A DNA stretch of 64,000 bases from Escherichia coli O127:H6 str. E2348/69 (GTDB taxonomy: Bacteria > Pseudomonadota > Gammaproteobacteria > Enterobacterales > Enterobacteriaceae). This document shows, in pieces, positions 15,063 through 30,627 of this stretch. The stretch lies in the NCBI RefSeq assembly GCF_000026545.1, contig NC_011601.1; one strand, given 5' to 3'. The first letter of the stretch is position 1. Every line of letters begins with the position of its first letter. Both the position numbers and the translations under genes were made by a program. The notes beneath the pieces are model-generated. The model was not told where the DNA came from. It made no database searches and was given only the letters and a program-made list of their open reading frames with translations.

Positions 15063-15200
15063 TTTTTGGTCCTTCTCTGGTGTGGTCTGGGAAGTGTAGA
15101 GCATGGCAGGGCGGGGTGCCTGGAGTGTGACAAAGGTTACACATCGCGGTATGCAATGCTGAAAATTTCAGCACTTAGCGAGGTGCGAGCAAGCTGGCGC

Positions 15201-15228
15201 TTGCATGGTGGCGTGCGACAGGTATAAT
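15201..15228 (+). promoter_or_regulatory. Putative sigma-70 promoter of leuX (TTGCAT-16 bp-TATAAT)
   Basis: Near-consensus -35/-10 hexamers about 30 bp upstream of the mature tRNA 5' end. Confidence 0.6.
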
Positions 15229-15257
15229 CCACAACGTTTTCCGCATACCTCTTCAGT

Positions 15258-15342
15258 GCCGAAGTGGCGAAATCGGTAGACGCAGTTGATTCAAAATCAA
15301 CCGTAGAAATACGTGCCGGTTCGAGTCCGGCCTTCGGCACCA
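15258..15342 (+). tRNA. leuX: tRNA-Leu (anticodon CAA)
   Basis: 85-nt sequence gccgaagtggcgaaatcggtagacgcagttgattCAAaatcaaccgtagaaatacgtgccggttcgagtccggccttcggcacca; long variable arm, CCA end encoded. Confidence 0.92.
15312..15342 (+). repeat. attL core: 31-bp 3' end of leuX, repeated exactly at 30373-30403
   Basis: cgtgccggttcgagtccggccttcggcacca occurs at both positions in direct orientation. Confidence 0.85.
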
Positions 15343-15859
15343 AGTCACTAAATTTCTTACAATACAATAAGTTAGGAAATAAAATCTATCTCTTTTGCCT
15401 GTAAGAAATGCTCTGTTATGTCCCTTGAAAAAGCCGCTGTGGTTGATAGTGGTAATTGGGATGTTAACTCATAGCGGCGTGTAGTTCCAAGCGTCAAACA
15501 CGTACTGACTCAACTTGAAAGCTATGACGTAGCCACCGTCTCTAAACAATCCCAAAAACTTTTAGTGAAGCGCATTTTAGCCCGATGCCCCCGTTCTGTC
15601 GCCGTCGCGAGACGCCGCAGGGGATAAACAGGTTTATGGTGGTCACGGTACTTGCAGACCATATGCAAGCTCTGCCAGCGGTTCGGCCTCGCTCCCCTTG
15701 GGTACATGGTCATCCTGATAAGCCTCACTAACTGACATAACTGTGATGTAGTCGCCAGAGGCTCCGCTTGTTGTCTTACCACCAACGGGGCTTATGACTT
15801 TTATTGTGTCAGTAAACGGCATATTATCAGTGATAGTTCAAACAGTTAGTAGGTAGAAA

Positions 15860-16408
15860 ATGAAGACCAAAAGAAAGAGCTTTGATCAATTCTTATGGCA
15901 TGATATTGATTTTGAAGATGATGCTGCAAAACAGGAAGAATACCTTGAATCTGCATTGCCACTTATTGGCCAGATTGTTATGTATTTCAATGCGCTAGAG
16001 AAAGAATTAGATAAAGTCATTTATGAAGGATTCAGCGATCGGTCAGATCAGTTAGGAATAATAATTGTGCATAACATGAATTATGCAGCAAAAGTCGAGT
16101 TATTTAGACGTCACTCCGAATTATTCCATTTGGGTGTTGGGCAGCATGTTGATATGTTTGAAGGTCTTATAAAGGATCTCAAGGAATGTGGACGGTTACG
16201 AAACATTACTGTACATGCTGACTGGGATAGCACTGATGTCGAAGGATATACATATTTAGGCATCAAAATAACTAACAATGGAATATCTCAGGAATATATC
16301 CAGTTTGACCTGGGGTCGTTGGAAAGTATCCTTCAATTGATTTTCAGTACGAGATATAAGTTGAGTGATTATTCAGACTTAAGGGGAGATATACTGGCTT
16401 CACATTAG
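15860..16408 (+). CDS. Hypothetical protein with HEPN-like R-N-x3-H motif (possible RNase/abortive-infection-type toxin)
   Basis: 182-aa ORF in AT-rich DNA; RLRNITVH motif at about residues 112-119 fits the HEPN Rx4-6H signature. Motif-level evidence only. Confidence 0.4.
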   Translation: MKTKRKSFDQFLWHDIDFEDDAAKQEEYLESALPLIGQIVMYFNALEKELDKVIYEGFSDRSDQLGIIIVHNMNYAAKVELFRRHSELFHLGVGQHVDMFEGLIKDLKECGRLRNITVHADWDSTDVEGYTYLGIKITNNGISQEYIQFDLGSLESILQLIFSTRYKLSDYSDLRGDILASH

Positions 16409-16477
16409 TGCCATTTTTTTACTAAATAGCTAACAAATACTATCGGTAAAAGACAACATCGCAATGGTAAAGCTGCC

Positions 16478-16948
16478 GTGAAGAAGACATTGATTGATTG
16501 GATCATAGAGACTGATAACTGGACAGGAATCGCAGCGTGGGCGGGTTTCGGTTTGTCAGTATTTCAGTTAGTAAAATCAAGAACATCGCTAAGACTTTAC
16601 CTCGGGTGTGATCAGCACGAGGACAGAATATACGTTTCGAACATAAGCGCACATGATGTAACGTTGAGTGTAGCCGGTGTCGTAACAGCCAGTGGACGCC
16701 TTAGAATGCTTTCCGACGAGTATTCGGATGAGAACATGATCACACCGATGTTACCAAGAAGGTTGAAAGCACGAGACGAAATGGTCTTGAACGTGCCCTT
16801 CATAAATAAGGCTCATCACAACAAAGTGCATCATCGTGGCGGGGTGTATATCAAAACATCTGACGGCAAGATGTTCAGTGATGTTTGTTGGATTAGACGC
16901 CAATGGTGGTGGTTACTGTCTGTAATACTGCGAGACACAAAGCGATAG
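16478..16948 (+). CDS. Hypothetical small membrane protein
   Basis: 156-aa ORF with an N-terminal hydrophobic helix (GIAAWAGFGLSVFQLV) and a Trp-rich hydrophobic C-terminus; AT-rich. Confidence 0.4.
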   Translation: MKKTLIDWIIETDNWTGIAAWAGFGLSVFQLVKSRTSLRLYLGCDQHEDRIYVSNISAHDVTLSVAGVVTASGRLRMLSDEYSDENMITPMLPRRLKARDEMVLNVPFINKAHHNKVHHRGGVYIKTSDGKMFSDVCWIRRQWWWLLSVILRDTKR

Positions 16949-17159
16949 GACAAGCGAGTCGCAGCTCATATGAGTGCCAACTGACATACGGCTCAGTTGG
17001 AATACTAGGATCGCGACTACGTGTTGTCTGCGAAAAACTGGGACTCAATAGATGGGTGTAGATTTAATTGATACGATCCTGTACGCGAATATTTCTCAGC
17101 ATAAATATCATCCCAGCGTCGGATTATGGTATTCAGAATGTGTGTGATGGTCTCTATCT

Positions 17160-17921
17160 TTATTCAGACCTTTTCTTCTTATCTTCCCATTCTTTTAAAG
17201 TGCTCTGATATCTTTCTTCATTTATTCTTTTTTCCTCGGTTCTGTCGCTTGAGTTGTAATTATCTGTTTTAATTTTCTTGGCTCCTTGGGATATCGGCCT
17301 CCAGTCCTCTCTAATTTTTTTCACTTGCTCGGCTATTTGTGTCATTGGACTCCTTGCTCCTAAATAGCTAACCCCCTCGAAAGAAGCCATATCATAAGAA
17401 TATTCATTGAGTTCTCTTTCTGTAGATCCGGGCTGTTTTGACCAACTGACACTAATAGAATAAATTTGATCCTTAATTTGCTCATACTTGCAGAGATTGC
17501 TGTTGAGAGAGTGTCCGTTTTTTAATACGCTGACCTTGCTAAATGGTACGCCTCTATTTTTTCTATGTTCTGCATTAACGAGAGGGGGATCAAATTCGAC
17601 CGCTATATCATAGGCTGGTGCATTTCCAGTATTAGCGATATTAATGTCAAAATAAAAAGCAGCCCAAGAGTTTGGTTCAAGAGTCACAACAACATGTGGT
17701 TGAACTGATGCGTCAACCATCCTTTTCGTTTCGTTTGCTAATAGCCTTGTTACTCTCCACAAGAAAAACGTAGCAACTGCTGTTAGCAGTGCTGCAAAAG
17801 CAGAGATCATTGTGCTTATAGTATCTATATGCTGTGTGATGAATTCGATCATTCTTCTCCCTCGAAATATAGTGCTTATTGTTATCAAAGGTAAGATAGC
17901 TCCCGGCTTGAAAAATTGCAC
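17160..17921 (-). CDS. Hypothetical membrane-anchored protein (probable true start at internal Met near 17852)
   Basis: 253-aa ORF; N-terminal TM helix (ISAFAALLTAVATFFLW) then a soluble domain and a charged K/E-rich C-terminus. Confidence 0.4.
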   Translation of the reverse strand: MQFFKPGAILPLITISTIFRGRRMIEFITQHIDTISTMISAFAALLTAVATFFLWRVTRLLANETKRMVDASVQPHVVVTLEPNSWAAFYFDINIANTGNAPAYDIAVEFDPPLVNAEHRKNRGVPFSKVSVLKNGHSLNSNLCKYEQIKDQIYSISVSWSKQPGSTERELNEYSYDMASFEGVSYLGARSPMTQIAEQVKKIREDWRPISQGAKKIKTDNYNSSDRTEEKRINEERYQSTLKEWEDKKKRSE

Positions 17922-18314
17922 GCTTATGGTTGCCCCTCCCTCGACGGTTAAGGCTTCAACTTCCCCCGTGCGCCTCTCCCAGCCGAAGGCTGGGCGGGCT
18001 GTATATCGATTTGCCTTCCTCTGTGGCGTTTATGACCCTGTTTCGCGTTCTTACCGTGAGGCTGTGGGTTAGGGTTACTCTTCTCTTTAAACGCTAAATC
18101 ACTCCTGAATCTCCACTGTTAAAGCACTTTGCGTTGATGCTTGGCGCTTCTCTTGGCTGTCGTTATTGTTTTGGCTTTGGTGTCATCAATCGTTCGATTC
18201 TTGCTACCTGTCTGAGTGATTACTATCTGGTATCATCAATTTAGGGTTTGACTAAATGCCACCACCAATGCAATGATGCTACCGTTTTGTGATACCAGAC
18301 GGGTGAGGTGAACC

Positions 18315-18884
18315 ATGAGGACTTTTATCTACTGCCGCGTTTCAACACGCGAGCAGGATACGCAGAATCAGGTGCTGGCTATTGAGCGTGCCGGGTATAA
18401 GGTGCCGGAGAGCAGGGTAATCAGCGAGGACATTTCCGGCAGCGTTCAGGCTATGCAGCGCCCTAAGTTCCGGGCGATGGTTGAGCACAAGCTGGAAGCG
18501 GGAGATCAGCTTGTCGTGCTGAAACTGGACAGGCTGGGGCGTGACAACATCGATGTGCAGCAGACCATCGACATGCTGTTAGAACGCGGCGTGAAGGTGG
18601 TGTCTCTTGACCTGCCAGCGCGTGATCTGACTTCATCTGAGGGCAAGCTAATCCGCCAGATGTTTGGAGCCTTTGCTGAGTTCGAGCGAAACCGTATCCG
18701 TGAGAGGACGCTGGACGGGCTGGAGAAGGCGAAAGCCAATGGCGTTAAGCTGGGACGCAAGGAAGCCACCGACACCACTCAAAAGGTGCAGGAGCTGCGG
18801 AGTGAGGGGCTGTCTCAATCGAAGGTAGCGAAGCATCTCGGCGTTAGCGTGAGCACCGTTAAACGTCACTGGAACAAGGGTTAG
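18315..18884 (+). CDS. Serine recombinase (resolvase/invertase family)
   Basis: 189 aa; catalytic-serine motif YCRVSTREQ at the N-terminus, LDRLGR motif, C-terminal HTH (SQSKVAKHLGVSVSTVKR). Confidence 0.85.
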   Translation: MRTFIYCRVSTREQDTQNQVLAIERAGYKVPESRVISEDISGSVQAMQRPKFRAMVEHKLEAGDQLVVLKLDRLGRDNIDVQQTIDMLLERGVKVVSLDLPARDLTSSEGKLIRQMFGAFAEFERNRIRERTLDGLEKAKANGVKLGRKEATDTTQKVQELRSEGLSQSKVAKHLGVSVSTVKRHWNKG

Positions 18885-19559
18885 GGGTGATGACCTACAA
18901 CCAAATGAGGTGCCAGCACTGGCCGTTACTGGGCTGTGGGAGATGGATGACCTACAGCTTTTGTATTTATTTCAGAGTGTTATGTTATGCGAAATCTCGT
19001 AATGCTATGATTTATAGTGTATTTTCGTATTACTTGCGGCTCTTGATGCGAAGAGATGGCGGGGCTTTAGCCGTGCCAGACGATGAGCATCAAGATCAGA
19101 TTGTGAATGTGATTCATCACTGAACAATTCGAGGGATGGGGCAGGGGAAGGGATCAAAGGCTGCGTTGTCCAATCACTAAGCTAGATTTGAAGCTGGTCA
19201 ACACGTTAGTAGTATCTTTAAAGTCGCATTTTAAATACATGTACAAAAAAGGGTTCTTCCCCTACATCCCCTTCTCCTAATCAGTGTTATCGCTTCACGC
19301 TCACCACTGGCTGCGCTTCTCGCTGTGCTCCAGCCCACTCGATCGCCTTTGGCTCATTCCCGGTCTTCGCCTGCTGTGATGCTCGGCCACTCTACGCAAC
19401 CGTGCTTGCCGTGGCATGCAACGCGGCGGGGATGTGTAGTGGAACGGTACTTTTTATCTATATTATTAATTTAATCAATCACATACTGTTATCGGTAGGT
19501 ATTCTTCAAAACATCTTCATTCATTTCTGTATCGTTCAATCATCTTTCTTGTTCGTTTC

Positions 19560-19700
19560 CTTTCAGGTCTTAGCCGTTGGTCATTGGTCTTACTGCCCGC
19601 TGTGCTACTGCCAGCTATGGCACGCCGTCACGGTCTACTGTCTGTCACCTGTCCTACTGCGTTCACTGTCTGCCGTCTGTCATCCTGTCGGATTCCATCC
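19560..19700. repeat. Pyrimidine-rich cluster of short iteron-like repeats (YTACTGYC / CTGTC) next to an AT-rich tract; candidate replication origin
   Basis: tcttactgcc, gctactgcc, tctactgtc, cctactgcg and cactgtctgcc within about 100 bp; AT-rich stretch at 19440-19560 immediately upstream. Confidence 0.3.
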
Positions 19701-20149
19701 GTTGACGTTCCGCGCTCGCTTGTTTCGGCTGCGCCGCGCTCGCTCTGCGTATCTAGCGATACTATATCACTATAGACACTTTCATAATTATATAATGATT
19801 ACAGTAACTTATGTTTTCTGTTTTAAAAGCTACTAATAAGGAGATATAGAGCATTACTTACCCGCTTTTGACCGACAAAAATCGCGTTGTTAAGTATTGC
19901 CAGCCCAGGCTCAATAAGGCTTAGCGAGGTGGTGGCTAAAAAATGAGCTAATGAAGGTATCTACTAAGGAGAAAGAATAACTCCCGAAGCGCGACAAACT
20001 CTCCGATTTTGAAAGTGACTATTAAGGCAGATAAAGACACTGACACTGTTGCTGACATGAAAACTTCTAAAAGGGCAGAGAGTCTGCCGAACCCGTACCG
20101 CTGACCCAACCTGAGCTAATACCTACCCCTATTTTCTGGAGATTTCACC

Positions 20150-21994
20150 ATGCCAACAAACCTACGCCGCCTGCTTGCGCAGGCTGCCGACGCTGACCCG
20201 CTCAATACTGCGGACGCAGATGTACAGCAAATGATCGCTGACGGGATTGTTATTCGACGTTCCAAGATATGCCCTGTAAAGCGTAAACCCGTTAAGGCGG
20301 CATACAACACAAAGACCGAAGAGTTTTATTACAATGCAGATGGCTCCGCGATGACCTTGCGGGAGTGGCGAACGCTGCACGGTGTTCAACCGAAGAAACA
20401 AAAACAGCGCTCTGACACTGGGTTGCGGCAAGTCATCCAGCCCGGCGACGCGATTCACTGCCGACGCGCTGAGATTGAGCAATGGCTTAATAAGAAGCCC
20501 GCTCGTTATGTTGACCCGCTGCCGCCAGATTTTCCCGGTGTTCGCGTAGACGATGCCGCATTGAAACCGCGCGAGCACGCCGTGCCGGAAGCGACAACCG
20601 GACAGAATGCTTTTCTCAAAGCCTGCCGCGAGTTCCTGATTTGCGATGAGAAGACCATGCGCCGTATCAGTCGGGGCATGAACCAAATGGAAGCTATGCG
20701 CAACGCAGATTTCAAACGCTACGGAGACTCAGGGGAGTTTCGTCAATTGTGGTGTGGAGAGTCGAAGCCTACCGAAGATAGATTTAATAGTTCTAATCAT
20801 CATTGTGACCCGAACGGCTTGGCTGCTTCGCCGTCTGTGCCGCCACTGAATACTGCACCGTATGAGTTCCGCCCGCTGGCTCGCTGTGACCGAAACGCAC
20901 GCGTTAGCCTGCTGCCACCTGATGGGCTGGAGTGGAGGCCGGGGCAGTTGTCTGTTGCTGATGCGATCTTTTCCCGTGGCAGTGATGTGCTTGCCGTACT
21001 GCCGACCGGGTATGGCAAAAGCGCCGCCTTCACTTATCCATTGATTTATGAGTCCCGCGCTGGCATTGGCCTGTCTGTAATCGTGGTTCCTACTAATACC
21101 CTTAAGCGTCAGATTCTCCGCCAGTTGCGGGAGGCTGGCATTCACGCTGTGGCCTTTGGCGATAAGCTACCGAGGCACCGCAACGCACAACAACTGGCGG
21201 GACTAGCAGCCGGGGCGTTCCGGGTTGCTGTTGTTTCGCCTGAACATCTGGTTCCGTCGAGTCAGGTTCTCGCGGCGCTGATGGCTTATGGCGTTGATCG
21301 TTTTATTATCGATGAGGCACACACGGTCAAAGACTGGGATTTCCGCCCAGCTTACGACGCAATGCAGCACACACTACAGAATGCTTTTCCCTCGGCTCAG
21401 CGCTGCGTGTTTACGGCTACTCTACTACGAGAAAATGAGCGCGGTTTAATGGAGGCGCTGGGATGCCGTGGCGATTACGTTACATTCCGTGCTGATGTTG
21501 CTCGCGAGAATATCCAGTTGATTCCGGTCAGGCAGTGCCGCCAGCGATACCGCGCGGCTGTTGGTCTGGTCGAGGCTCTGCCAGAGGAAGAGAAGACGCT
21601 CATTCTAGTCAATGACCTTAAGACGTTGCGGGCGTACCTGAAACTCTTCGGCGACCGGGCGCGCCCATATCACTCGAAGACGATGCACCTGAGCAACGAG
21701 GAACGCCACGCAAACGCTGAGTGGTTTGCCTCTGCGCCGGGCGCGATTCTGATTGCTACTAAAGCCTTCGGGCTGGGTGCTGATGTTCCTGATATCCGTA
21801 ACGTTGTCGTGACATACGTTCCCGATGACTTGCCTGATCTCGTTCAGATGATTGGACGAGCCGGGCGCGATGGGGAACCTGCCCGCGCTTTTCTGCTGTG
21901 GTCATCGCTGGCGCTGGATGTTGCTCCTGATGAGCTTGCTTACTTCTACCGCCCTGAAAACTGTAACTGGCAGTACATCGCTAAATACCTCTGA
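20150..21994 (+). CDS. RecQ-family superfamily-2 DNA helicase with a ~270-aa N-terminal domain of unknown function
   Basis: Helicase motifs LPTGYGKS (Walker A), IIDEAHTV (DEAH box) and GRAGRDG (RecQ-type motif VI). Confidence 0.7.
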   Translation: MPTNLRRLLAQAADADPLNTADADVQQMIADGIVIRRSKICPVKRKPVKAAYNTKTEEFYYNADGSAMTLREWRTLHGVQPKKQKQRSDTGLRQVIQPGDAIHCRRAEIEQWLNKKPARYVDPLPPDFPGVRVDDAALKPREHAVPEATTGQNAFLKACREFLICDEKTMRRISRGMNQMEAMRNADFKRYGDSGEFRQLWCGESKPTEDRFNSSNHHCDPNGLAASPSVPPLNTAPYEFRPLARCDRNARVSLLPPDGLEWRPGQLSVADAIFSRGSDVLAVLPTGYGKSAAFTYPLIYESRAGIGLSVIVVPTNTLKRQILRQLREAGIHAVAFGDKLPRHRNAQQLAGLAAGAFRVAVVSPEHLVPSSQVLAALMAYGVDRFIIDEAHTVKDWDFRPAYDAMQHTLQNAFPSAQRCVFTATLLRENERGLMEALGCRGDYVTFRADVARENIQLIPVRQCRQRYRAAVGLVEALPEEEKTLILVNDLKTLRAYLKLFGDRARPYHSKTMHLSNEERHANAEWFASAPGAILIATKAFGLGADVPDIRNVVVTYVPDDLPDLVQMIGRAGRDGEPARAFLLWSSLALDVAPDELAYFYRPENCNWQYIAKYL

Positions 21995-22031
21995 GTCGAA
22001 AGGCTCTCCCTGATTCTCTGGAGTTAATCAT

Positions 22032-22469
22032 ATGCCTGTTACCGAACATGCGCAGCGTCGTGCTGCGCGTGCGGATGCGCTCATCACCGCACAACTAGCC
22101 TTTGCCCTGAATGGGTACAACTGGGATGAACTGGCCGAACCTCATCGCAAGACCCTTAATCGTGAGGCCATCATTCGCGAGGTATCTACACCGCTGGAGC
22201 GATATTGCCTGCTGAATGATTGCGAGCCGTGGGAGTGTCTGGCCGCTGTACTGAACCGCATGAAAAGGCCGGATGGCTCGCGTCGCTGGAAAGCCGTCCG
22301 GTTGTCCGACCGGGTTTTCAATGGCCGGGTGCATCCAGTGCGCAAGACTCCTGATGAAGTTTACGCCGCCATTGCCCGCCGCTTGTTCCTGCCGAAGCCT
22401 GTGCATCAAGAAGTGATACAGCACATCCGTGCGCTTGGCTTGTTACCAGTTGGAGATAACCACCAATGA
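22032..22469 (+). CDS. Hypothetical protein
   Basis: 145-aa ORF, co-directional in a tightly packed operon. Confidence 0.4.
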   Translation: MPVTEHAQRRAARADALITAQLAFALNGYNWDELAEPHRKTLNREAIIREVSTPLERYCLLNDCEPWECLAAVLNRMKRPDGSRRWKAVRLSDRVFNGRVHPVRKTPDEVYAAIARRLFLPKPVHQEVIQHIRALGLLPVGDNHQ

Positions 22470-22675
22470 CGAAATCTGAATTTGAAAATGAAACATGGCG
22501 AATGAAGGGCTTGCTTCTTGGGGCGCTGATTCGCCGCCTTGAGGAAGATAAGGCTGGCGAGTCGCGCATGGTCGCAGCGGAGTTATCCAGTGCGGTCAAC
22601 TTCCTTAAGGCCAACGCCGTAGAAGCGCCGGACACATCATTCAACAACGTGTTCCCGGAGGATGACGAACAATGA
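22466..22675 (+). CDS. Hypothetical small protein
   Basis: 69-aa ORF with ATGA overlap with the upstream gene. Confidence 0.3.
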   Translation: MTKSEFENETWRMKGLLLGALIRRLEEDKAGESRMVAAELSSAVNFLKANAVEAPDTSFNNVFPEDDEQ

Positions 22676-22848
22676 CCCCTGAACAATTCAGACAATGGTT
22701 CGCCACGCTGCCACCGAACTATCAGAGCGCCGCACGCACCATGTACGACAACGCCCGCAAGTCGGGCATACATACCGCGTCAAGCCTTGCGCTGATTCAC
22801 ACGTTGGTTACTGACCAGATCAAATTTGATTCGGAGTTTAATTTATGA
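22672..22848 (+). CDS. Hypothetical small protein (58 aa)
   Basis: Not in the ORF track (below 60 aa); start and stop both overlap neighbours in ATGA fashion, suggesting translational coupling. Confidence 0.3.
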   Translation: MTPEQFRQWFATLPPNYQSAARTMYDNARKSGIHTASSLALIHTLVTDQIKFDSEFNL

Positions 22849-23408
22849 CTTTGAGTATTACCGATATCCAGCGCATTAACGCGCTGGCTCATAAGCACCT
22901 AAAGAACAATGAAGAGATTGCAGCGGAGACAGGTCATACCCTGACCGATATTGACGCTGTAATCCGTGGCGTCTATGTCGATGACTTGGCCGAACATTGG
23001 AAAGACGATGCTGATATTACTCTGGCGGAGTACAACGCCATCCGCAGCCGCTATAAGCCCGGCAAGTTGCACCGCGATACAGAGTTTATGATTGCCCGCG
23101 ATATGCTGATTCGCCCTGAGACTGTGCTGGCTATCGCCCATTCCCGCTTTAGCAACGTCCACACGCACCCAGTGCCGAAAGCCGTCAAAGCAAAGCCGGA
23201 GAAAGCGAAAGTAGTGCGCAAGTTAGTGCTTACTGATTTAGATGAAATCCACAAGTTAGAGCGCTTCGGTTGGCCTGCTGCGGAGATCGCCGGGAAGCTG
23301 GGCGTCCCTGTTGAGGTCGTCGCGCATGTGCAACGCTGCCTGAGAAATCGTTGGTCGTACCCGGATACTCTGGAGTCTGTTAACTCCAAATTCAGCGAGG
23401 CTGAATGA
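22845..23408 (+). CDS. Hypothetical protein with a possible C-terminal HTH
   Basis: 187-aa ORF; HTH-like segment GWPAAEIAGKLGVPVEVVAHVQRC. Confidence 0.4.
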   Translation: MTLSITDIQRINALAHKHLKNNEEIAAETGHTLTDIDAVIRGVYVDDLAEHWKDDADITLAEYNAIRSRYKPGKLHRDTEFMIARDMLIRPETVLAIAHSRFSNVHTHPVPKAVKAKPEKAKVVRKLVLTDLDEIHKLERFGWPAAEIAGKLGVPVEVVAHVQRCLRNRWSYPDTLESVNSKFSEAE

Positions 23409-23641
23409 TGGCAGAGAACGAACCGCTGCACCCCGCCGTTAACCCTGATCTCTACGTGAACCTTGACGAACAACGCGAAGGATACGCTCCGATTGAATCA
23501 CAGGGTTGGGATGTGCTGACGCAGAACCTGACCGGGAAAGGTCGAACTGACCCCAGCCAAACACTTAACCAGAATCCGAAACAACGCCCGCACGGCTCCG
23601 TTGGTGAGCGTCGTTGGCTTCGTAAACGTGGATTACTTTAA
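23405..23641 (+). CDS. Hypothetical small protein
   Basis: 78-aa ORF, overlapping start with the upstream gene. Confidence 0.3.
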   Translation: MMAENEPLHPAVNPDLYVNLDEQREGYAPIESQGWDVLTQNLTGKGRTDPSQTLNQNPKQRPHGSVGERRWLRKRGLL

Positions 23642-23653
23642 CGAGGAATTACC

Positions 23654-23893
23654 ATGAGCAAAACTATCGTATTGCTGCCGCCCCGCAAGAATACAGACTG
23701 GGCTGCACAATTAAAGCTGATTTCTGAATCGCTTGAGGTGAGTCAGGCAGACCTCGCCCACGCCTATCAGGTTGATCGTCGGGATATGGGTAAAGCGTAT
23801 CACGGTGTGCGCAAACTGCCGGAGCGTTGTGTGCCTGTTCATATGCTGTTGTTAGCGCAGGTACACGACTTTAGAGCATTATCAGGAGAATAA
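23654..23893 (+). CDS. Hypothetical small protein (possible HTH regulator)
   Basis: 79-aa ORF with an RBS-like aggaa upstream. Confidence 0.35.
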   Translation: MSKTIVLLPPRKNTDWAAQLKLISESLEVSQADLAHAYQVDRRDMGKAYHGVRKLPERCVPVHMLLLAQVHDFRALSGE

Positions 23894-23896
23894 TTT

Positions 23897-24577
23897 ATGT
23901 CTGACCAGAATGTTAATCCGTACCTTTCCGGTGCTGATGCTGCATCGCAGCAATCGCCATACATGGCTGCACCTGTTGGCGCTGACAATGGCGCATCCCG
24001 CTTTAGCTCTGTGCCTGCTGATGCTGATTTCCTCCGTACCCAGCCCGTTAACGGTAATGATGGCGGCCAATGGAATAATGGCAGTATCGCGAATCAGCAG
24101 GATCAGAACGCTGACAGCGCCGGGGCGCAGGTGGGCGATACTATCTCCCTGATGGATGGAACAGCTATTGAGTACACCGCCGAGCTGCAAGGATTGATGG
24201 GGCAGTTTCACCAGTCTGTCGAAAGCCAGCTAGGGCAGGGGACAGTTGACGCTATGTTGCAGTACGCTGGCACGCTCGACGCCGGGACGCAATCGACCCT
24301 TGAACGGATGGTTATGTCTGGCGACCCTGCGCAGATGCAGCGGGCGGTTCAGTATCTGCAAGAGCGTATGGCTGGCGGTTCCATTACCGGTTACGTCCCG
24401 AACGGCCAGACTGCCGCGCAACCTGTCGGAATGTCACATGCTGAGTTTATAGCAGCGTATGACCAGCTTTCGCAGTGGGCGCAGCAATCAGGGTATGGCC
24501 CCGGCCATCGCCAGTACGACGAACAATACCGTGCTCTGGTTGCGCAGCGCTCCGCTGGCAAACGTGCTGGTCGCTAA
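23897..24577 (+). CDS. Hypothetical acidic Q/A/G-rich protein (scaffolding-protein-like composition)
   Basis: 226-aa low-complexity protein immediately upstream of the capsid-like gene; compositional resemblance only. Confidence 0.35.
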   Translation: MSDQNVNPYLSGADAASQQSPYMAAPVGADNGASRFSSVPADADFLRTQPVNGNDGGQWNNGSIANQQDQNADSAGAQVGDTISLMDGTAIEYTAELQGLMGQFHQSVESQLGQGTVDAMLQYAGTLDAGTQSTLERMVMSGDPAQMQRAVQYLQERMAGGSITGYVPNGQTAAQPVGMSHAEFIAAYDQLSQWAQQSGYGPGHRQYDEQYRALVAQRSAGKRAGR

Positions 24578-24716
24578 CGCCCAACGGTGGAATGCGCCCT
24601 GCAAGACTGAGTGCGCACCAACCCGGTACTACCACACCAATCTAAGCGCATGAGTCCCCGCAAGCCGCATTCTGCGCGGCATCTGAAAGCCTGTTTTTAA
24701 TTAACCGAGGTTCGTA

Positions 24717-25130
24717 ATGAGTACCTGTAATTTCCATGCCGTGGTGCGTGTCGCTGACGTGCGCCCGGATTTCGCCTTGCCGCTGGGTAGATGCGACCAC
24801 ATTTACCCTGAGCGTGTGCAGCACGTTTTCAATCCAGACGAAGCGGTTTATATCGTTGCCCGGTCTGCCACATCCGGCACCCGCACATCTGGCGTTAGCC
24901 GTGGGCTTTCCCCTGTGCTGCCGCCGAAGATGGCCGAGCGGATGCGCGAACGTGAACGGCACGAGAAAAACCGAGTCAGACCCCGCAAGGTGATCACTGA
25001 GGCGATACGCGCTGACATTATCGATCGCTCTGCAAAAGGTCAGAAGAATCGTTACATTGCAAGCAAGGTTGGTGTGTCTGAAACCTCTGTGCGGAAGGTG
25101 TTGAACATGGCGCGTATGAGTGCGCACTAG
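24717..25130 (+). CDS. Hypothetical DNA-binding protein (C-terminal HTH)
   Basis: 137-aa ORF; HTH-like NRYIASKVGVSETSVRKVLN. Confidence 0.4.
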   Translation: MSTCNFHAVVRVADVRPDFALPLGRCDHIYPERVQHVFNPDEAVYIVARSATSGTRTSGVSRGLSPVLPPKMAERMRERERHEKNRVRPRKVITEAIRADIIDRSAKGQKNRYIASKVGVSETSVRKVLNMARMSAH

Positions 25131-25349
25131 TGCAAGGTAATACGTTCACCTTACTTCACGCGCACTAACCCCTGAGAACCGTGCCAGCTCTGGCCTCAAA
25201 ACGCCCATTTCGGGGCACCTCATTCCTCTTAATCGATACCGTTCTGAATCCTGCCTCGGCGGGAGGATTACGCACGCCCGCGCCATGACGATGGCCGGGC
25301 CTATCTCGTCAGTGAATCCGCTGGCACAACCTACGTAGGAGTTTTACAT

Positions 25350-26345
25350 ATGGCCGATAACATTTACTCGCCTGACCAGTTCCGCCCACATTATGGCGGG
25401 GTGGAATCTGACAATGATATTCACATCGAGGCTTATGACCGGGATGTCCAGACCCGTTTAGAGTCCAAATCCGTATTTCTGGCCGAGGGGCTGTCTACAT
25501 ACAGGCCGCTGAAAGCCAGCAACCAATATCGTGTTGATCGCCTGAGTGGTGATCTGGAGGTGAAGGGCAGAACCGCAGGGCAATCGCTGGAGCCTACCGC
25601 TGTTAAGTCGGATAAGCTGATTATCTCTGTGGATACGCTGAGTTATATCCGCATCCCGATTGACTATCAGGATGACTGGACAGCACCCACCTTTCGCTCA
25701 GAGCTGAGCCGCAATATCGGTACTGCTCACGCTAAATTCTACGACGAAGCGCACACCATCCAGCTAATCAAAGCGACTGACTTTGTACCGCCGCCGACGT
25801 TGCAACCAACGTTTAACCCGCTGACGGATAATGTTGTCTCGCTCGACCTGACAGCGGGGAGCGAAGAGGACGCCGCAAACGAATTGTCTCACGCCGTAAA
25901 AGCGGCTGCTAATCGCTTTCTCACTGAGAAAGATATTCCGGTGGCCGAGCTGGTACTGCTTATCGACCCGGCTTGGTTCAGCATCCTGATGGAACATAAG
26001 AAGCTGATGAACATCCGTTACAGCCGGGATAGTGGCAACGATTACGCATGGCGTCGAGTTGGCTATGTCGCTTGGGTACGAGTCATTGAGCTGAACAGTT
26101 ACCCGCAGGGAGCCATTACCGCGCATGAACTGGGCGCTGATTATAATGTGACCGCAGGGGAAGCGCTGACACGGGCGACGCTGTTCCGGCCTGCGTCTGT
26201 ACTTGTGACAGTCGAAGCGCAGAGCGTCATCAATCGCCAGTGGGATGAGGAACGCGAAATGACAATGGTGATGGACTCATATCGCCTGTTCAATGTTGGG
26301 CTGCGCCGCCCGGACTGCGTTATCAATTTCCGACAAGCTGCATAA
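25350..26345 (+). CDS. Hypothetical protein, possibly a phage-type structural (capsid-like) protein
   Basis: 331-aa ORF with strong RBS (aggag); size and position after a scaffold-like gene suggest a structural role; no motif-level proof. Confidence 0.35.
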   Translation: MADNIYSPDQFRPHYGGVESDNDIHIEAYDRDVQTRLESKSVFLAEGLSTYRPLKASNQYRVDRLSGDLEVKGRTAGQSLEPTAVKSDKLIISVDTLSYIRIPIDYQDDWTAPTFRSELSRNIGTAHAKFYDEAHTIQLIKATDFVPPPTLQPTFNPLTDNVVSLDLTAGSEEDAANELSHAVKAAANRFLTEKDIPVAELVLLIDPAWFSILMEHKKLMNIRYSRDSGNDYAWRRVGYVAWVRVIELNSYPQGAITAHELGADYNVTAGEALTRATLFRPASVLVTVEAQSVINRQWDEEREMTMVMDSYRLFNVGLRRPDCVINFRQAA

Positions 26346-26361
26346 CTGGAGGGGCTGAGTC

Positions 26362-26871
26362 ATGGTTAATGATGCTTACGCCCCTGAGCTGTTGCGATCC
26401 CTTTTCCTGTATGACCCGGTGACAGGTCGCCTGCACCATAAAGCTAGCCGATGCCGGGTTACGGCTGGCTCCTATGCTGACTCCACCCGGCGAGCTGATG
26501 GCTATCGTCAAGTTGCCCTGCGACTGGATGGCAAGCAGTACCAGCTAAAAGCCCATCGCGTAGCGTGGATTCTTGCGCATGGTGCTATTCCCCACGGTAT
26601 GCAGATCGATCACATCAACGGTACCCGTGACGATAACCGCTTATGCAATCTGCGATTGGTTACGCAGCGGGAAAACGACCAGAACCGACGCAAGGCAAGG
26701 GGGTATAGCTGGAATAAGGGCTGTAGCAAATGGGAGGCTTACATACGCGTTGGTGGTGTACTCCGTCACCTTGGCTTATTCACATCCGAAGCGGCAGCTC
26801 GTGCTGTGTACCTGAAAGCTAAAGCCAGATACCACCCCTCAACGCCTGACGATTTATTGCAGGCTGCCTAA
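26362..26871 (+). CDS. HNH endonuclease (phage-type, with AP2-like region)
   Basis: 169-aa ORF; HNH core IDHINGTRDDNRLCNLRLVTQRENDQN. Confidence 0.7.
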   Translation: MVNDAYAPELLRSLFLYDPVTGRLHHKASRCRVTAGSYADSTRRADGYRQVALRLDGKQYQLKAHRVAWILAHGAIPHGMQIDHINGTRDDNRLCNLRLVTQRENDQNRRKARGYSWNKGCSKWEAYIRVGGVLRHLGLFTSEAAARAVYLKAKARYHPSTPDDLLQAA

Positions 26872-26889
26872 CCCTCGGAGGTTCCATTA

Positions 26890-27315
26890 ATGGCTGATGA
26901 AAAGCCGATTAGGTCGCTGGCAGGTGATGACCCACGCCGCCAGCAGTACGCCGAACTGTTGGCGCAGGCTAGCCGCATGACTATTCCCCGGCTGCATCCG
27001 GGCGATGCTAACAGTGTGATGAGTCAGCTTGCAACGATGCTTGGCGCACCTGTCCCGATAGTCGGTGCTATGACTGAGCACGCCGCTGCATGGCGTGCCT
27101 GTCTGCTTGAGCAAGGACTTGGCGAGCTTCTGGATGGCTTGAGTAAACAGGTGCTGACCATCTTCTTTCTGCTCTGCTGGAGAGACAGCGCCTTGCGATT
27201 GGCTGGTAAGCAAAAGAAACGGCTTACAGCCGCCAGCGAGGGTTTGACCATTGAGCAATACCGGGCAATGCACCCGGCTTACAGAGAGGATAAAGAACAT
27301 GATAACCACGATTAA
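26890..27315 (+). CDS. Hypothetical protein
   Basis: 141-aa ORF in the operon. Confidence 0.35.
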   Translation: MADEKPIRSLAGDDPRRQQYAELLAQASRMTIPRLHPGDANSVMSQLATMLGAPVPIVGAMTEHAAAWRACLLEQGLGELLDGLSKQVLTIFFLLCWRDSALRLAGKQKKRLTAASEGLTIEQYRAMHPAYREDKEHDNHD

Positions 27316-27598
27316 ATTAAGGTGGCGGTACATCGAGACGCCGCCAATGACTGGCGCACTCGCTGACCTGAAACAGTGGGTAATGAATGCCGTAGAGCCT
27401 GAGCTTGAGGCTGAATTTCGTAAGCTGCTGGGGCAGATGCGTCGCAATGGTATCAGTGATGGGCGCGTAAATGCGGTGGCTGATGAGCTTTATGCTCTGG
27501 TATGCCAACGCCAGCGCGAAGAATACGAAGCCTGCAAGCGGGCTGCCTCTGACAATGGAGACTTTGAATCATGGTTACACGGACAGACCAGCTACTAA
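27299..27598 (+). CDS. Hypothetical small protein (start chosen at the ATG with GAGAGGA RBS)
   Basis: Track ORF 27251..27598; internal ATG at 27299 has a good Shine-Dalgarno sequence. Confidence 0.35.
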   Translation: MITTIKLRWRYIETPPMTGALADLKQWVMNAVEPELEAEFRKLLGQMRRNGISDGRVNAVADELYALVCQRQREEYEACKRAASDNGDFESWLHGQTSY

Positions 27599-27996
27599 GA
27601 AAAGCTATGAGGGGCTATCTGGAACACCTTGGCAACATGCCGCTGGCGGAACGGATTACAAATGCTGCTGTATTCGAAGATGTGTATCGCTTTTTGTTGA
27701 ATGGTTCCGGGCGGCTGGAGCTGCGCCGCGCTGACGTGGCTGCCGTCCGTGTCTTCCTTTGGAACTATCAATACCGCCGCTGTGCTGTGACAGGTAAGCC
27801 GCTGCGCCTTGCGTCTGCCGTTCTGGATCACTGCCACCGAACCGGGCGCGTGCGTGCTGTGGTGCATCGTTCTGCTAACGCTGCTGAGGGAGGCCGCTAC
27901 GTTGGGCGGACGTGTGGTGTTAGCGTTACGAATCTAAGGGCTATGATTGGCAGCTATCGCAAGCAATACACTGGTATTGGCATGTTATATCCATAA
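27571..27996 (+). CDS. Endonuclease VII-like (DHCH-type) nuclease
   Basis: 141-aa ORF with CAVTGKPL...LDHCHRTGRVR motif resembling the recombination endonuclease VII family signature. Confidence 0.5.
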   Translation: MVTRTDQLLRKAMRGYLEHLGNMPLAERITNAAVFEDVYRFLLNGSGRLELRRADVAAVRVFLWNYQYRRCAVTGKPLRLASAVLDHCHRTGRVRAVVHRSANAAEGGRYVGRTCGVSVTNLRAMIGSYRKQYTGIGMLYP

Positions 27997-28037
27997 CTGC
28001 GGGGTAATAAACCCCGCCGAAATAGTAGCGTAGCCAC

Positions 28038-28940
28038 TCAAACAGGAATGTTGTAGTAATGACAAATTGCATTAGTTAGTAGAGCTGGTGCAGCAGACGC
28101 TGCAATATTTAGCGTCCCCGCATATGCTTTACCAATCATATTTACAACCCACTTCCCAAGGCTATCACTGAAATTGTCCGGGGTAGTTGGGGCGGGTGAT
28201 TCTTGTATAGCTTGATGAAGGCTCTTAATATCTTCATCATTAGCGCCCCAATCCTTGAGCTGCTTTTCAAGCGAGTTGAAGTCTCCAGCGTTGACAGTAT
28301 TATTTTGTGAAATGTCCCCGTTACCAGAGCCAATAACGCCAGCATTGTTTACGTTGCCATGAATGTTGGTCACGTTATGGACAGTCATTGGCGCTACCTC
28401 TTTTTCTCTTAATGAAAACTGTAACCCTTCGCCTAAAATACCCTTTGACTCTAAGTCTAAAGACCAGTCGAGGATCTTATTCCTAACGGTAGTAATTACA
28501 TGTTCTAGTACACCAGCGCTTATAACCCATACCATCTCAGTCTTTTGTCCGATACTTTGAGCTAATGTATCAGCCATCCAATCCGGGAGAGGTAAAAAAG
28601 GGTTTTCTCCTTTATTGCTCATCTTTTTTATAGATGATATTGATTCTGTAATGTGAAACGTTGATACCATTGCATTTAATTCCGCGTCGTTGAAGTTGAC
28701 CACAAGCGGAACCCAGCTCTGATGTTGGGGACTATATGCTTTTAACTGCGATTGACCTTTCCTGTATTCAGGAACCGTATCAAAGCTGGGATAGCCATTT
28801 AATTCGAGCTGTATCCACTCGGTCAAATCGCTGAGGCCGAGCTTCACTGCAATCATTTTGGCCTTCATGAGTACAGATAAAATGTCGGAGTCGGGATCGC
28901 ACGCTAGTGCTTGAAGTTCAAGAACTGGTGAGTTAGCCAT
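28038..28940 (-). CDS. Hypothetical protein adjacent to the integrase (candidate abortive-infection/defense cargo)
   Basis: 300-aa ORF on the integrase strand, convergent with the main operon; N-terminal region loosely resembles Abi-type proteins, from memory only. Confidence 0.4.
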   Translation of the reverse strand: MANSPVLELQALACDPDSDILSVLMKAKMIAVKLGLSDLTEWIQLELNGYPSFDTVPEYRKGQSQLKAYSPQHQSWVPLVVNFNDAELNAMVSTFHITESISSIKKMSNKGENPFLPLPDWMADTLAQSIGQKTEMVWVISAGVLEHVITTVRNKILDWSLDLESKGILGEGLQFSLREKEVAPMTVHNVTNIHGNVNNAGVIGSGNGDISQNNTVNAGDFNSLEKQLKDWGANDEDIKSLHQAIQESPAPTTPDNFSDSLGKWVVNMIGKAYAGTLNIAASAAPALLTNAICHYYNIPV

Positions 28941-29027
28941 ATCAAGACCTTAGTATTGTTTTGATAAGGTATCTTACCCGCATCGAACCATGCAGTCTAA
29001 GGTTCGCAGGCCAAACTCACCCATGAG

Positions 29028-30239
29028 TTAGATGTTTATTCCTTCATGCTGGATGAGTTCGACATACTTACCGATCTCTATAGGGGAAGCTGCATTTTTC
29101 GAGTAAGTTTTGAAGCTCTCTGTACTCCCGCGCTCATGACCGACGAGCAGGGCAATACGATCTTCTGGCACTTGAGCACGGTCGAGCTGTTGCACAAAAG
29201 CATGGCGGAGTGAGTGAAACACTTTTCTCTCTGCGGCAGGCTCGCCAAGAGCTTTACGCTTTGCTCGCGTGAATTGCTGCGTATGCCACGTTGAGCGCTT
29301 CCCATCGGCCCGGTCTGTTATTGATGCGTGATAGAACAGAAAACCGCTATGTGTGGTCTTGAGCAATGACTTCACGAGAGGGATTATCTTGCTGTGTACA
29401 GGGACGATTCGCGCCGCGCTCTTAGTCTTCCCCTCGGTGATCTCAAAGCACAATATACCCTCGATAGTTTTAATACTGCTTTCACGTAGCGTACATATCT
29501 CATTGATCCGCATACCGCTGTATGCACCAATAGCCGTTACCGCCTTCATCTCGTCATCAAGCAAGGCATAGACCTTTGCCAGCTCTCCCGGTGCGAAGAC
29601 TTCATAGCTGACCTTGCTGCTTTTTGCTTCGAGCGCATGACCGCGCCAAGGATTGTCCTGTGGTGCATCGTGATAGCGATTGCGTGCCAGATCCCATATC
29701 TGCGCCAGTGCGCTTATATAGTTTTGGATAGTTTGGGGCGCTCGCTCAGTTTTGAGCTTATCTAACCAGCCTGTAACTATGGTTCGGTTAATATCCCGCA
29801 ACTGAACATCTTTCTTTTTCAAGTGGGTTAACAGCACCTCTACGGCTTTGTTGGTCTTGGATAACGTGGTTAGCTTTCGCTTCTCGCTGTATTGAAGCAG
29901 GTACAAATCACGCATTTTTAGCAAGGAAGGGCAAGCCTGAATCGATGCACCAAACGATGCGGGGGCTTCCTTGGCGTACACACTGACACGGCGTAGCTCA
30001 TCAATGATTTGGTCTACAGATGAGCCGCCTTGTGGCTTTAGCAGATTCCGTAAGCGAGTCCATTCCAGAGCAATAGCATCTCGAAACAATCGCGCTTGGC
30101 GTATGTCTCGTGTTCCTGTGCTTTTCATAAAGTAGCGCTTCCCTTGGAACAGGTGGCGCATATAGCTGGGAATAGCTATCCGCACGAGGTAATTCCCGCA
30201 GGGATCTAAAACTAGATAACGATCTCTCTTGAAACTCAT
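29028..30239 (-). CDS. Tyrosine-type site-specific integrase
   Basis: 403-aa ORF with C-terminal catalytic motifs (HSLRHAF, LLVGHERG, downstream Tyr); adjacent to the attR repeat. Confidence 0.9.
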   Translation of the reverse strand: MSFKRDRYLVLDPCGNYLVRIAIPSYMRHLFQGKRYFMKSTGTRDIRQARLFRDAIALEWTRLRNLLKPQGGSSVDQIIDELRRVSVYAKEAPASFGASIQACPSLLKMRDLYLLQYSEKRKLTTLSKTNKAVEVLLTHLKKKDVQLRDINRTIVTGWLDKLKTERAPQTIQNYISALAQIWDLARNRYHDAPQDNPWRGHALEAKSSKVSYEVFAPGELAKVYALLDDEMKAVTAIGAYSGMRINEICTLRESSIKTIEGILCFEITEGKTKSAARIVPVHSKIIPLVKSLLKTTHSGFLFYHASITDRADGKRSTWHTQQFTRAKRKALGEPAAERKVFHSLRHAFVQQLDRAQVPEDRIALLVGHERGSTESFKTYSKNAASPIEIGKYVELIQHEGINI

Positions 30240-30372
30240 ACAAACCCCGGTTATGTTGTCGGGGCTTTTTCATGGCTAAACAGTCTGTGAAATGTGCCGG
30301 GGTCATGAGCTTTAGTCTAGCTAGTTCAACAAGTTAACGATGATTGTTGAAGCAAGCTAAGTCGCTATAACC

Positions 30373-30403
30373 CGTGCCGGTTCGAGTCCGGCCTTCGGCA
30401 CCA
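30373..30403 (+). repeat. attR core: 31-bp direct repeat of the leuX 3' end
   Basis: Exact copy of 15312-15342. Confidence 0.85.
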
Positions 30404-30583
30404 CATCGTATGCAAATCGAGTCGCTCAAGGGCGGCTTTTTTTGTGTCTGGGATCCATTAGTTACCTATCTTTCTCGCTATTTTAACTCTCTCAGAGCCA
30501 ACCAATTTCAACCCATCGCAAACGAAAAATGTTGGTACAGGCGTTGGTATTTTCGGTTCGATATTAATTTGTATTAGCTCAGT

Positions 30584-30613
30584 CCTGATCTGACAGCTAT
30601 CTGCCAGATCAGG
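30584..30613 (-). terminator. Hairpin terminator downstream of hsdR
   Basis: Perfect 9-bp stem cctgatctg...cagatcagg with a 12-nt loop, about 15 bp past the hsdR stop. Confidence 0.55.
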
Positions 30614-30627
30614 TTCGGATTAATACA

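Follow-up and report, generated by a model that had tools for sequence, protein, structure and literature searches.

A 15-kb element in the leuX gene

The stretch of DNA analysed here, a 64-kb window matching Escherichia coli O127:H6 E2348/69 at 100% identity, contains a single tRNA gene according to ARAGORN, the tRNA-Leu(CAA) gene leuX. A tyrosine integrase has inserted a 15,061-bp element into the 3′ end of this gene, and it is this leuX element, probably a satellite of lytic phages, that concerns us here (Table 1). The last 31 nt of leuX (CGTGCCGGTTCGAGTCCGGCCTTCGGCACCA) occur exactly twice in the window, once in place and once as a displaced copy at the far end of the element, forming the cores of attL and attR, respectively. 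No third copy was found in the window at up to three mismatches, nor in 100 shuffles, and an Rfam scan of positions 15000-31000 returned nothing but the tRNA.

To reconstruct the uninterrupted locus, a synthetic empty site was assembled from the 300 bp ending at the leuX 3′ end and the 300 bp starting at position 30404. Among the matches listed, this query gave a single uninterrupted match of 98.7-99.7% identity; at least 80% of it was covered in 204 complete E. coli genomes, in which the gene order is ahr-leuX-hsdR. These uninterrupted leuX-hsdR sites imply that the insert is a clean 15,061 bp, one repeat copy counted. The integrase combines a DUF6538 domain with a Phage_integrase domain (PF00589, E 2.5e-16), and a domain search did not find the P4-type arm-binding domain in it, a make-up that sets the layout apart from the leuX-integrase order of P4-like islands. 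Its sequence is 94-98% conserved in leuX-integrated relatives. With tRNA 3′-end repeats, an empty-site allele and an intact tyrosine recombinase at one border, the element has the hallmarks of a tRNA-associated island.

An original prediction, made from the letters of this DNA alone, had proposed a ~15-kb insert delimited by an exact repeat of the leuX 3′ end. Both the repeat and the insert are borne out by the 31-mer search and the empty-site genomes, which also speak against a chance duplication. An empty site was found as anticipated, with hsdR rather than the expected nanS on its right flank. The tRNA-distal position and inward transcription of the integrase, its departure from the P4 family, and the combination of two recombinases, a helicase, phage-like genes and cargo were likewise read correctly, and database and literature searches turned up no known prophage or satellite family with the same organisation. 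What the prediction missed is the identity of the phage-like genes—homologues of Bonnellvirus capsid, scaffold and packaging proteins—and the copies of phage cis-acting sites that accompany them.

Table 1. Features of the leuX element and its surroundings (positions in the 64-kb window; aa, amino acids)
Feature	Position	Strand	Remarks
leuX, tRNA-Leu(CAA)	15258-15342	+	Only tRNA in the window
Proximal 31-bp repeat (attL core)	15312-15342	+	Last 31 nt of leuX
Cargo slot 1	15343-18314		G+C 41-46%; content variable among family members
Cargo slot 1 open reading frame	15860-16408	+	
Cargo slot 1 open reading frame	16478-16948	+	
Cargo slot 1 open reading frame	17160-17852/17921	-	Matches phrog_11802
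44-bp genome-end site copy	17902-17945	+	39 bp left of phage terminal repeat plus first 5 nt of repeat
Small serine recombinase	18315-18884	+	Resolvase/invertase type
Phage-like non-coding segment	19608-19812	+	Matches Bonnellvirus region between terminal repeat and early sigma-70 promoters
P_L, leftward phage-type promoter-like motif	19765-19788	-	ATTATGAAAGTGTCTATAGTGATA; 28.9 bits
P1, rightward promoter-like motif	~19823-19842	+	AAAAGCTACTAATAAGG; GCTAC-type
P2, rightward promoter-like motif	19948-19971	+	16.2 bits
P3, rightward promoter-like motif	20006-20029	+	TTTTGAAAGTGACTATTAAGG; 23.3 bits
RecQ-like superfamily-2 helicase	20150-21994	+	Family-specific N-terminal 260 aa
Core protein, 145 aa	22032-22469	+	
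Small-terminase-like acidic protein, 69 aa	22466-22675	+	Resembles N-terminal half of Bonnellvirus small terminase
Four small core genes	22672-23893	+	58, 187, 77 and 79 aa
Core protein, 187 aa	22845-23408	+	C-terminal helix-turn-helix
Core protein, 79 aa	23654-23893	+	Helix-turn-helix-like by eye
Scaffold-like acidic protein, 226 aa	23897-24577	+	Homologous to C-terminal ~100 aa of 406-aa Bonnellvirus scaffolding protein
Basic helix-turn-helix protein, 137 aa	24717-25130	+	Other gene in its place in some family members
Major capsid protein, 331 aa	25350-26345	+	phrog_267, E 3e-64
HNH endonuclease	26362-26871	+	phrog_99, E 3e-53
Core protein, 141 aa	26890-27315	+	
Core protein, 99 aa	27299-27598	+	
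Endonuclease VII-type junction nuclease	27571-27996	+	31-33% identical to phage endonuclease VII
Cargo slot 2, AbiTii-domain protein	28038-28940	-	
Tyrosine integrase	29028-30239	-	DUF6538 + Phage_integrase; adjoins distal repeat, reads inward
Distal 31-bp repeat (attR core)	30373-30403	+	Displaced copy of leuX 3′ end
hsdR	30628-33744	-	First gene of defence block beyond distal repeat
Truncated nanS	~43652-44218		After hsd/mcrBC defence block

Head and packaging proteins related to those of Bonnellvirus

The centre of the element is a rightward 7.9-kb operon, separated from the serine recombinase gene by 1.27 kb of non-coding DNA and consisting of the helicase gene followed by ~13 genes, through the endonuclease VII gene ending at 27996. 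Its major capsid protein is 54-56% identical over the full length to that of the Bonnellvirus phages (Autographiviridae) forsur, Lidtsur, megetsur, HHU8, J8-65, RZ4 and Kc261, and 41-50% identical to that of other phiKMV-like phages. UniProt labels the gene product a 'predicted capsid protein', Pfam gives no match, and its ratio of non-synonymous to synonymous substitution rates (dN/dS) is 0.12-0.21.

Two genes upstream lies the gene for the scaffold-like protein, whose homology to the Bonnellvirus scaffolding protein is found by BLAST (32% identity, E 3e-5) and hhalign (E 9e-6, probability 83%), the alignment reaching the C-terminus; there is also a weak phrog_1052 match. This gene is retained even in relatives that lack the capsid gene. 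The 69-aa acidic protein, in turn, aligns with the Bonnellvirus small terminase at a BLAST E of 0.006 and an hhalign E of 7e-5 (probability 62%). Its sole PHROG match is the small-terminase family phrog_891 (TerS, E 0.021), which is also matched by the phage small terminase itself and by the counterpart of the 69-aa protein in a distant family member. At E<=1e-3, no phage terminase was returned by the full-library profile search. The protein is under constraint (dN/dS 0.06-0.18) and is a candidate packaging redirector, its likeness to small terminases being suggestive only.

Searches with PHROG, Pfam and BLAST against helper genomes found no homologues of portal, tail, core, large-terminase or DNA or RNA polymerase proteins, and the helicase and the integrase are the only open reading frames (ORFs) of the element longer than 331 aa. 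Judged by their sequences, the phage-like head and packaging proteins thus point to an origin in one lytic phage genus, Bonnellvirus. Candidates for regulators or an excision factor are the four small core genes upstream of the scaffold-like gene.

We propose that the RecQ-like protein is a replication or processing helicase; its N-terminal 260 aa have no relatives outside the element family. With the curated NCBIfam model for DpdF it scores 124 bits, below the cut-off of 550, and no other Dpd genes (DpdA/B/C etc.) appear in the annotation or the PADLOC scan, such that the element does not qualify as a Dpd system. The PADLOC 'DpdF' sub-model PDLC02858 fits the helicase near-perfectly despite there being no Dpd system in the element. 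Helicases of this very family may have been in the training set of the model, in which case false Dpd calls at leuX are possible.

Non-coding copies of the phage concatemer junction

Alignment of five phages gives a common order for the Bonnellvirus concatemer junction: endolysin gene, hairpin, terminal repeat, GT-rich repeats, a conserved segment, an AT-rich stretch, four strong sigma-70 early promoters and gene 1. In J8-65, the terminal repeats are annotated as 259 bp long and the genome begins with TCGACCC. Two pieces of this junction recur in the non-coding DNA of the leuX element. The first is the 44-bp genome-end site copy, which ends in CCTCCC followed by TCGAC, i.e. 5 nt beyond the left end of the J8-65 genome, where the similarity stops. 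It is 93% identical to megetsur, 91% to Kc261 and 76-77% to HHU8 and J8-65, and is 92-100% conserved in all ten of the other family elements checked. We propose it as a terminase recognition or cutting site.

The second piece, upstream of the helicase gene, matches the conserved segment of the phages over 165-205 bp at 83-98% identity and includes CT-rich repeats and the promoter-like motif P_L. Elements whose helicase genes have diverged by more than one synonymous change per site still share 91% identity in the non-coding module. Beyond the pieces described here, megablast against 50,697 phage records detected no sequence shared with phages. In the search of the element for the phage terminal repeat and its right boundary, a 16-nt match at 15384-15399 has an E of 0.45 and was treated as chance.

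Promoter-like motifs and the phage RNA polymerase

A motif of the form ATGAARG-NNNN-CTRTAG stands at the same four to five places in each of four Bonnellvirus phages. On the plus strand, copies precede the middle genes, follow directly on the RNA-polymerase gene, open the gene cluster that comes after it and fall within the final internal-virion gene; in addition, one leftward copy per phage lies ~275-340 bp inside the left terminal repeat. The variable bases are identical within a phage and different between phages, tracking the RNA-polymerase residues that align with R746 and N748 of T7: GTGAC in RZ4 is paired with N and N, GTGTC in megetsur with N and N plus a nearby G-to-S change, GCTAC in Kc261 with H and H, and GTAAC or GTATC in J8-65 with G and K. 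A PDB search aligned the specificity region of the Bonnellvirus polymerase with T7 residues 672-845; we take R746 and N748 to be numbered as in the T7 sequence and to act in the specificity loop. Uniformity within a phage combined with co-variation with the polymerase is the pattern expected of promoters for the phage's own polymerase.

A position-weight matrix built from 14 phage motif sites identifies P_L and P3 as the two best matches in the 64-kb window, 240 bp apart and just upstream of the helicase gene. The top scores of 100 shuffles averaged 11.7 and did not exceed 21.6. Of the 12 other family loci scanned, 11 have their best rightward match just upstream of the helicase gene. Where the upstream module is without a phage match, as in five elements, the motifs are of the GCTAC type and again upstream of the helicase gene. 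Across elements, the variable bases change (TGAC, TGTC, CATC, CTAC, TATC) and the flanks are kept. No sigma-70-like promoter was found in 18800-20200, which lends weak support to the idea that the operon is silent without a phage polymerase.

Two other lines of evidence were discarded. The sequence TCACTATAG, located in the segment shared with the phages, was considered as a rightward T7-like promoter and rejected, as the motif positions in the four phages show that it is the reverse complement of a leftward motif, and the count obtained with a degenerate regular expression (4 found versus 3.7 expected in the window) is uninformative, such that only clustering and matrix scores carry weight.

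Two of these motifs in each Bonnellvirus genome fall within coding sequence (records L003, L004, L102 and L007; at ~20.1 kb and 32-33 kb), one at the first codons of a small gene and the other in the last internal-virion gene, ~1 kb ahead of the gene for the tailspike. Since the amino acids encoded there differ from one motif variant to the next, the protein sequence seems to be constrained by the motif. Elsewhere, the chromosome of E. coli strain 5735 has a perfect canonical T7 promoter (TAATACGACTCACTATAGGGA; locus L008, 18370-18400). It follows closely on a DUF4145 gene and belongs to a second integrase-bearing element that adjoins the satellite-like one. It may represent another host element wired to a phage RNA polymerase. 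The 64-kb window itself has no canonical T7 promoter.

Distribution, conservation and size of the family

The core of the element (19500-28000) is present in 59 of 5,426 complete E. coli genomes. Members of the family share one order—cargo, serine recombinase, promoter module, RecQ-like helicase, ~13 core genes, second cargo slot, integrase—and most copies examined sit at leuX, one being located elsewhere with a different integrase. Close relatives exist in Trabulsiella, Enterobacter, Kluyvera and Kosakonia, in all of which near-identical parts occur. The capsid protein belongs to a 90%-identity cluster of 978 members that includes Cronobacter. A scan of species-representative genomes used two peptide patterns only, and its five matches understate the distribution. 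Gene order is conserved across the family and identity is mosaic; in a deeper Enterobacter hormaechei lineage, the capsid protein is 58% identical to that of E2348/69.

Core genes are under purifying selection, with dN/dS values of 0.06-0.3 except for three higher pairwise values in the short 99-aa and HNH genes. The most distant relatives, devoid of the capsid gene, keep the genes for the helicase, the small-terminase-like and scaffold-like proteins, the HNH nuclease, endonuclease VII and the integrase, plus the recombinase in the sole contig reaching that far. Two such contigs, L103 from a metagenome and L104 from Logan, have the helicase, small-terminase-like, scaffold-like, HNH and endonuclease VII genes, and L104 the integrase as well. 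Seemingly, the capsid gene was gained later, or lost, within a broader family around the scaffold homologue.

Eight elements differing in cargo measure 14,471-15,400 bp, and one with an extra insertion sequence 16,437 bp. This size is ~0.35 of the 42-kb genome of the proposed helper, a ratio also known from P4 and P2 and from SaPI1 and 80alpha, where T=4 heads stand against T=7 heads of the helper. The 15,229-bp Logan contig L010 was considered as a free form of the element and rejected, because it breaks at the repeat, probably owing to an assembler k-mer near the repeat length. In the relatives L009 (17635), L010 (15158) and L014 (18228), the distal repeat ends in a short tandem expansion (GGCCTTCGCACCTTCGCACCTTCGCACC...) rather than an exact tRNA 3′ end; such degenerate or slipped repeats might affect excision.

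Recombinase, cargo and the neighbouring island

A serine recombinase gene always occupies the same position in the family, with types that differ (26-35% or 98-99% identity). The search for its target sites or an invertible segment gave weak inverted repeats only, and no inversion was seen between family members.

Both cargo slots carry defence genes, as in other satellites, and both turn over in relatives, where DUF3800, TIR, restriction-modification (R-M), Rap1a and AbiTii genes are found; slot 2 holds R-M systems or a TIR-domain gene, among others. The ORFs in slot 1 of E2348/69 received no PADLOC or Pfam assignment. By eye, the protein encoded at 15860-16408 has an R-x4-H motif (RNITVH) recalling HEPN-type nucleases; it has no match in Pfam, PADLOC, NCBIfam or PHROG. 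The gene at 17160-17921 is 83-84% identical at the nucleotide level to a gene in a hotspot of P2-like phages (the 'lysogenic conversion protein' of P2-EC53, and phage R18C), which suggests that the same cargo circulates between P2-type prophages and the element. No defence family could be assigned to this gene, and the matches of the element to P2-like phages are confined to it.

Straight after the distal repeat, an integrase-less defence block and the truncated nanS that follows it occupy window positions 30628-44218. Beyond hsdR, it comprises hsdS, hsdM, a DUF4942 gene, mcrB, mcrC, a phosphorothioate-dependent restriction enzyme gene and an HNH gene, placing a type I R-M/McrBC island between the distal repeat and the nanS remnant of E2348/69. 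Other strains differ in content at this position. The block appears to be an immobilised island, older than the element, in the same hotspot, and together with the nanS remnant it fits the view that the leuX hotspot grows by serial integration (bioRxiv 10.1101/2025.09.15.676423).

A proposed satellite of virulent T7-like phages

Taken together, the sequence evidence makes it probable that the leuX element is an integrative phage satellite parasitising virulent T7-like Bonnellvirus phages (Autographiviridae, ~42 kb). As expected of a satellite, it is devoid of a full set of virion and replication genes and is tied to an identifiable helper group both in cis and in trans. The life cycle that we envisage would begin with an operon (20150-27996) that is largely silent in the uninfected cell and is switched on when the single-subunit RNA polymerase of an infecting phage reads P1-P3 (19823-20029). 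By analogy with the promoters close to the ends of the T7 genome, P_L, with its phage-derived leader (19608-19812), may function in initiating replication or in processing concatemers. The element would then excise and be amplified with the aid of the RecQ-like helicase. The shortened scaffold homologue and the element's own capsid protein could build small heads on the portal, core and tail proteins of the helper, and the small-terminase-like protein, the HNH nuclease and endonuclease VII, working with the large terminase of the helper, would process and package the DNA via 17902-17945. New cells would receive both the element and its anti-phage cargo from the resulting particles, to the detriment of the helper.

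In its full form, the proposal is one that we favour by a little: the element would stand for the first satellite family among virulent T7-like podoviruses, as well as for the first lytic-phage satellite in Enterobacteriaceae, with a promoter array that senses infection and whose specificity bases have diversified to match helper polymerases, with small heads of its own, with packaging via a genome-end copy, and with defence cargo spread between genera.

Several observations weigh against a satellite of Bonnellvirus. Neither the phage terminal repeat nor its right boundary has a homologue anywhere in the element, and 5 of the 12 related elements scanned have another upstream module without a match in any sequenced phage, phage-type motifs being still there (the modules of L008 and L009 were searched against the 50,697 phage records). 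The matrix scan found no such motif in the E. hormaechei lineage, and the searchable literature yielded no experimental mapping of Bonnellvirus promoters. More distant relatives lack the capsid gene, the 69-aa protein resembles the small terminase only weakly (hhalign probability of 62%), neither an excision factor nor a primase could be recognised in the element, and the helicase matches PDLC02858 at 919 bits and could serve defence instead of replication. Two IMG/VR matches could not be attributed to DNA from free virus particles, one of them being a 27.7-kb metagenome contig that is longer than the element. Finally, the proposed helpers are colanic-acid-targeting phages, and the infectability of E2348/69 has to be counted as a doubt.

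Some of these points would sit well with an integrative defence island that is not transduced, in which the promoters sense infection, proteins imitating the capsid, scaffold and small terminase poison the head assembly and packaging of the helper, the nucleases attack phage DNA, and movement occurs by other routes. Promoter mimicry fits a sensor equally well, and the defence cargo in both slots, the match of the helicase to a PADLOC defence model, the missing terminal-repeat homologue and the capsid-less relatives all agree with such an island. A pure decoy, however, needs no genome-end copy kept in all members, and both the size of 14.5-15.4 kb, held despite cargo turnover, and the rapid spread across genera without conjugation genes would be left unexplained. 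We therefore judge an untransduced island unlikely, bearing in mind that known satellites both interfere with their helpers and are transduced by them, such that the two readings overlap.

The presence of phage-derived genes and DNA segments beside an integrase might also suggest a decayed prophage, or a leftover fragment of a temperate relative of the Autographiviridae, with no present function beyond its cargo. This is the least credible of the explanations considered, given a core of ~15 genes kept in the same order and under purifying selection in several genera, intact repeat ends and integrase, a capsid cluster (90% identity) of 978 members, and phage-like non-coding pieces that are more conserved than neighbouring synonymous sites. 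Scarcely more probable is that the element is a poorly annotated member of a described family, i.e. P4-like satellites, phage-inducible chromosomal islands (PICIs) or capsid-forming PICIs. The leuX site, the ~15-kb size, the defence hotspots and the capsid gene with an HNH nuclease do recall P4 and capsid-forming PICIs. Yet no P4-type integrase, alpha primase, sid, psu or delta was found in the element, nor alpA, a primase-replicase, portal, protease, connector or large terminase; its nearest phage relatives are lytic podoviruses rather than P2-like or lambdoid phages, and megablast against the 50,697 phage records covers <=5% of it.

Significance

To our knowledge, a satellite that exploits a strictly lytic phage has been worked out in detail only for the pairing of ICP1 with the phage-inducible chromosomal island-like element (PLE) of Vibrio. 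T7-like phages serve as models and are often considered for therapy. A satellite of such phages, if confirmed, would provide a tractable E. coli system with well-developed tools for the helper. A phage-polymerase promoter would then be a simple, portable infection switch, the array suggesting that one satellite could follow several helpers. Lytic phages would also have a route for carrying defence islands from genus to genus (Escherichia, Enterobacter, Kluyvera, Kosakonia, Cronobacter), a movement with a bearing both on phage therapy and on the assembly of the leuX defence hotspot. For the phages themselves, the analysis yields candidate Bonnellvirus promoter sites, candidate pairings with the polymerase specificity loop and a predicted position for the packaged DNA end.

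Comparison with known systems

On the strength of its genes and sites, we regard the leuX element as a putative new family of satellites, set apart by the class of its helper and by the route of induction proposed for it, both of them new. No satellite linked to Autographiviridae, T7-like or phiKMV-like phages was found in the searchable full-text literature, outside of which most subscription journals lie. Composite defence islands at leuX, adjacent to Ahr, have been described as products of serial integration of satellite-like elements (bioRxiv 10.1101/2025.09.15.676423). They share with our locus the hotspot, the tRNA-Leu direct repeats and an active element abutting an immobilised defence island, comparable to hsd/mcrBC here. 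The same study emphasises elements in which few phage genes can be recognised; for these it mentions no capsid gene, and Autographiviridae come up only in its plaque assays (bioRxiv 10.1101/2025.09.15.676423).

The leuX site, variable anti-phage cargo and a size of about one third of the helper genome are shared with P4. P4-like satellites use leuX, possess variable anti-phage hotspots and reach ~1/3 of the helper genome, consistent with a small head. Unlike them, the E2348/69 element has an integrase of another family at the opposite end and a proposed helper that is lytic and T7-like, and no PHROG or NCBIfam match to alpha, sid, psu or delta was obtained in it. Nor did a P2-type cos come to light, although no search aimed at it was made. 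In PICIs, including the Staphylococcus aureus pathogenicity islands (SaPIs), assembly and packaging are diverted by a scaffold of the satellite's own (CpmB, for example) together with a variant small terminase, a logic that the scaffold-like and small-terminase-like proteins of the leuX element would share. Neither a PICI repressor-derepression module nor alpA, a primase or a D5-type replicase was recognised in the element, whose helicase is RecQ-like, and the routes of induction would differ: promoters for the helper RNA polymerase here versus a helper anti-repressor there.

A laboratory precedent for packaging may be seen in T7 plasmid transduction. Chung and Hinkle reportedly found in 1990 that a phage RNA-polymerase promoter plus the DNA flanking the junction sufficed for a plasmid to be replicated and packaged by T7. 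The leuX element carries what look like equivalents of both, natural and chromosomal rather than constructed, and linked to putative capsid-remodelling genes.

Capsid-forming PICIs (cfPICIs) resemble the leuX element in being integrative, ~15 kb long and equipped with their own major capsid protein and an HNH nuclease, the genes for both of which are present here. They encode portal, protease, connectors and both the small and the large terminase, borrowing only tails from temperate helpers, whereas the leuX element has only a scaffold, a capsid protein and a small-terminase-like protein, all seemingly from lytic Autographiviridae; cfPICI portal, protease, head-tail connectors and large terminase gave no matches in the element, and it has no ORF of suitable size for them.

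The PLE of Vibrio cholerae, a satellite of the lytic phage ICP1 that doubles as host defence, offers further parallels. It, too, is an integrated island of similar size with nucleases and a helicase of its own. A virulent helper, a part in host defence and a satellite scaffold redirecting capsid size are further parallels, all of them proposed ones for the leuX element. The differences are equally clear, as no sequence homology was seen, the proposed helper of the E2348/69 element is a T7-like podovirus and that of PLE a myovirus, and only the former element has its own major capsid protein, copies of phage promoters and of a genome-end site, and a host among the Enterobacteriaceae. By analogy of function, the closest known systems would thus be PLE, with its lytic helper, scaffold-based resizing and nucleases, together with the capsid-forming PICIs, with their own capsid protein.

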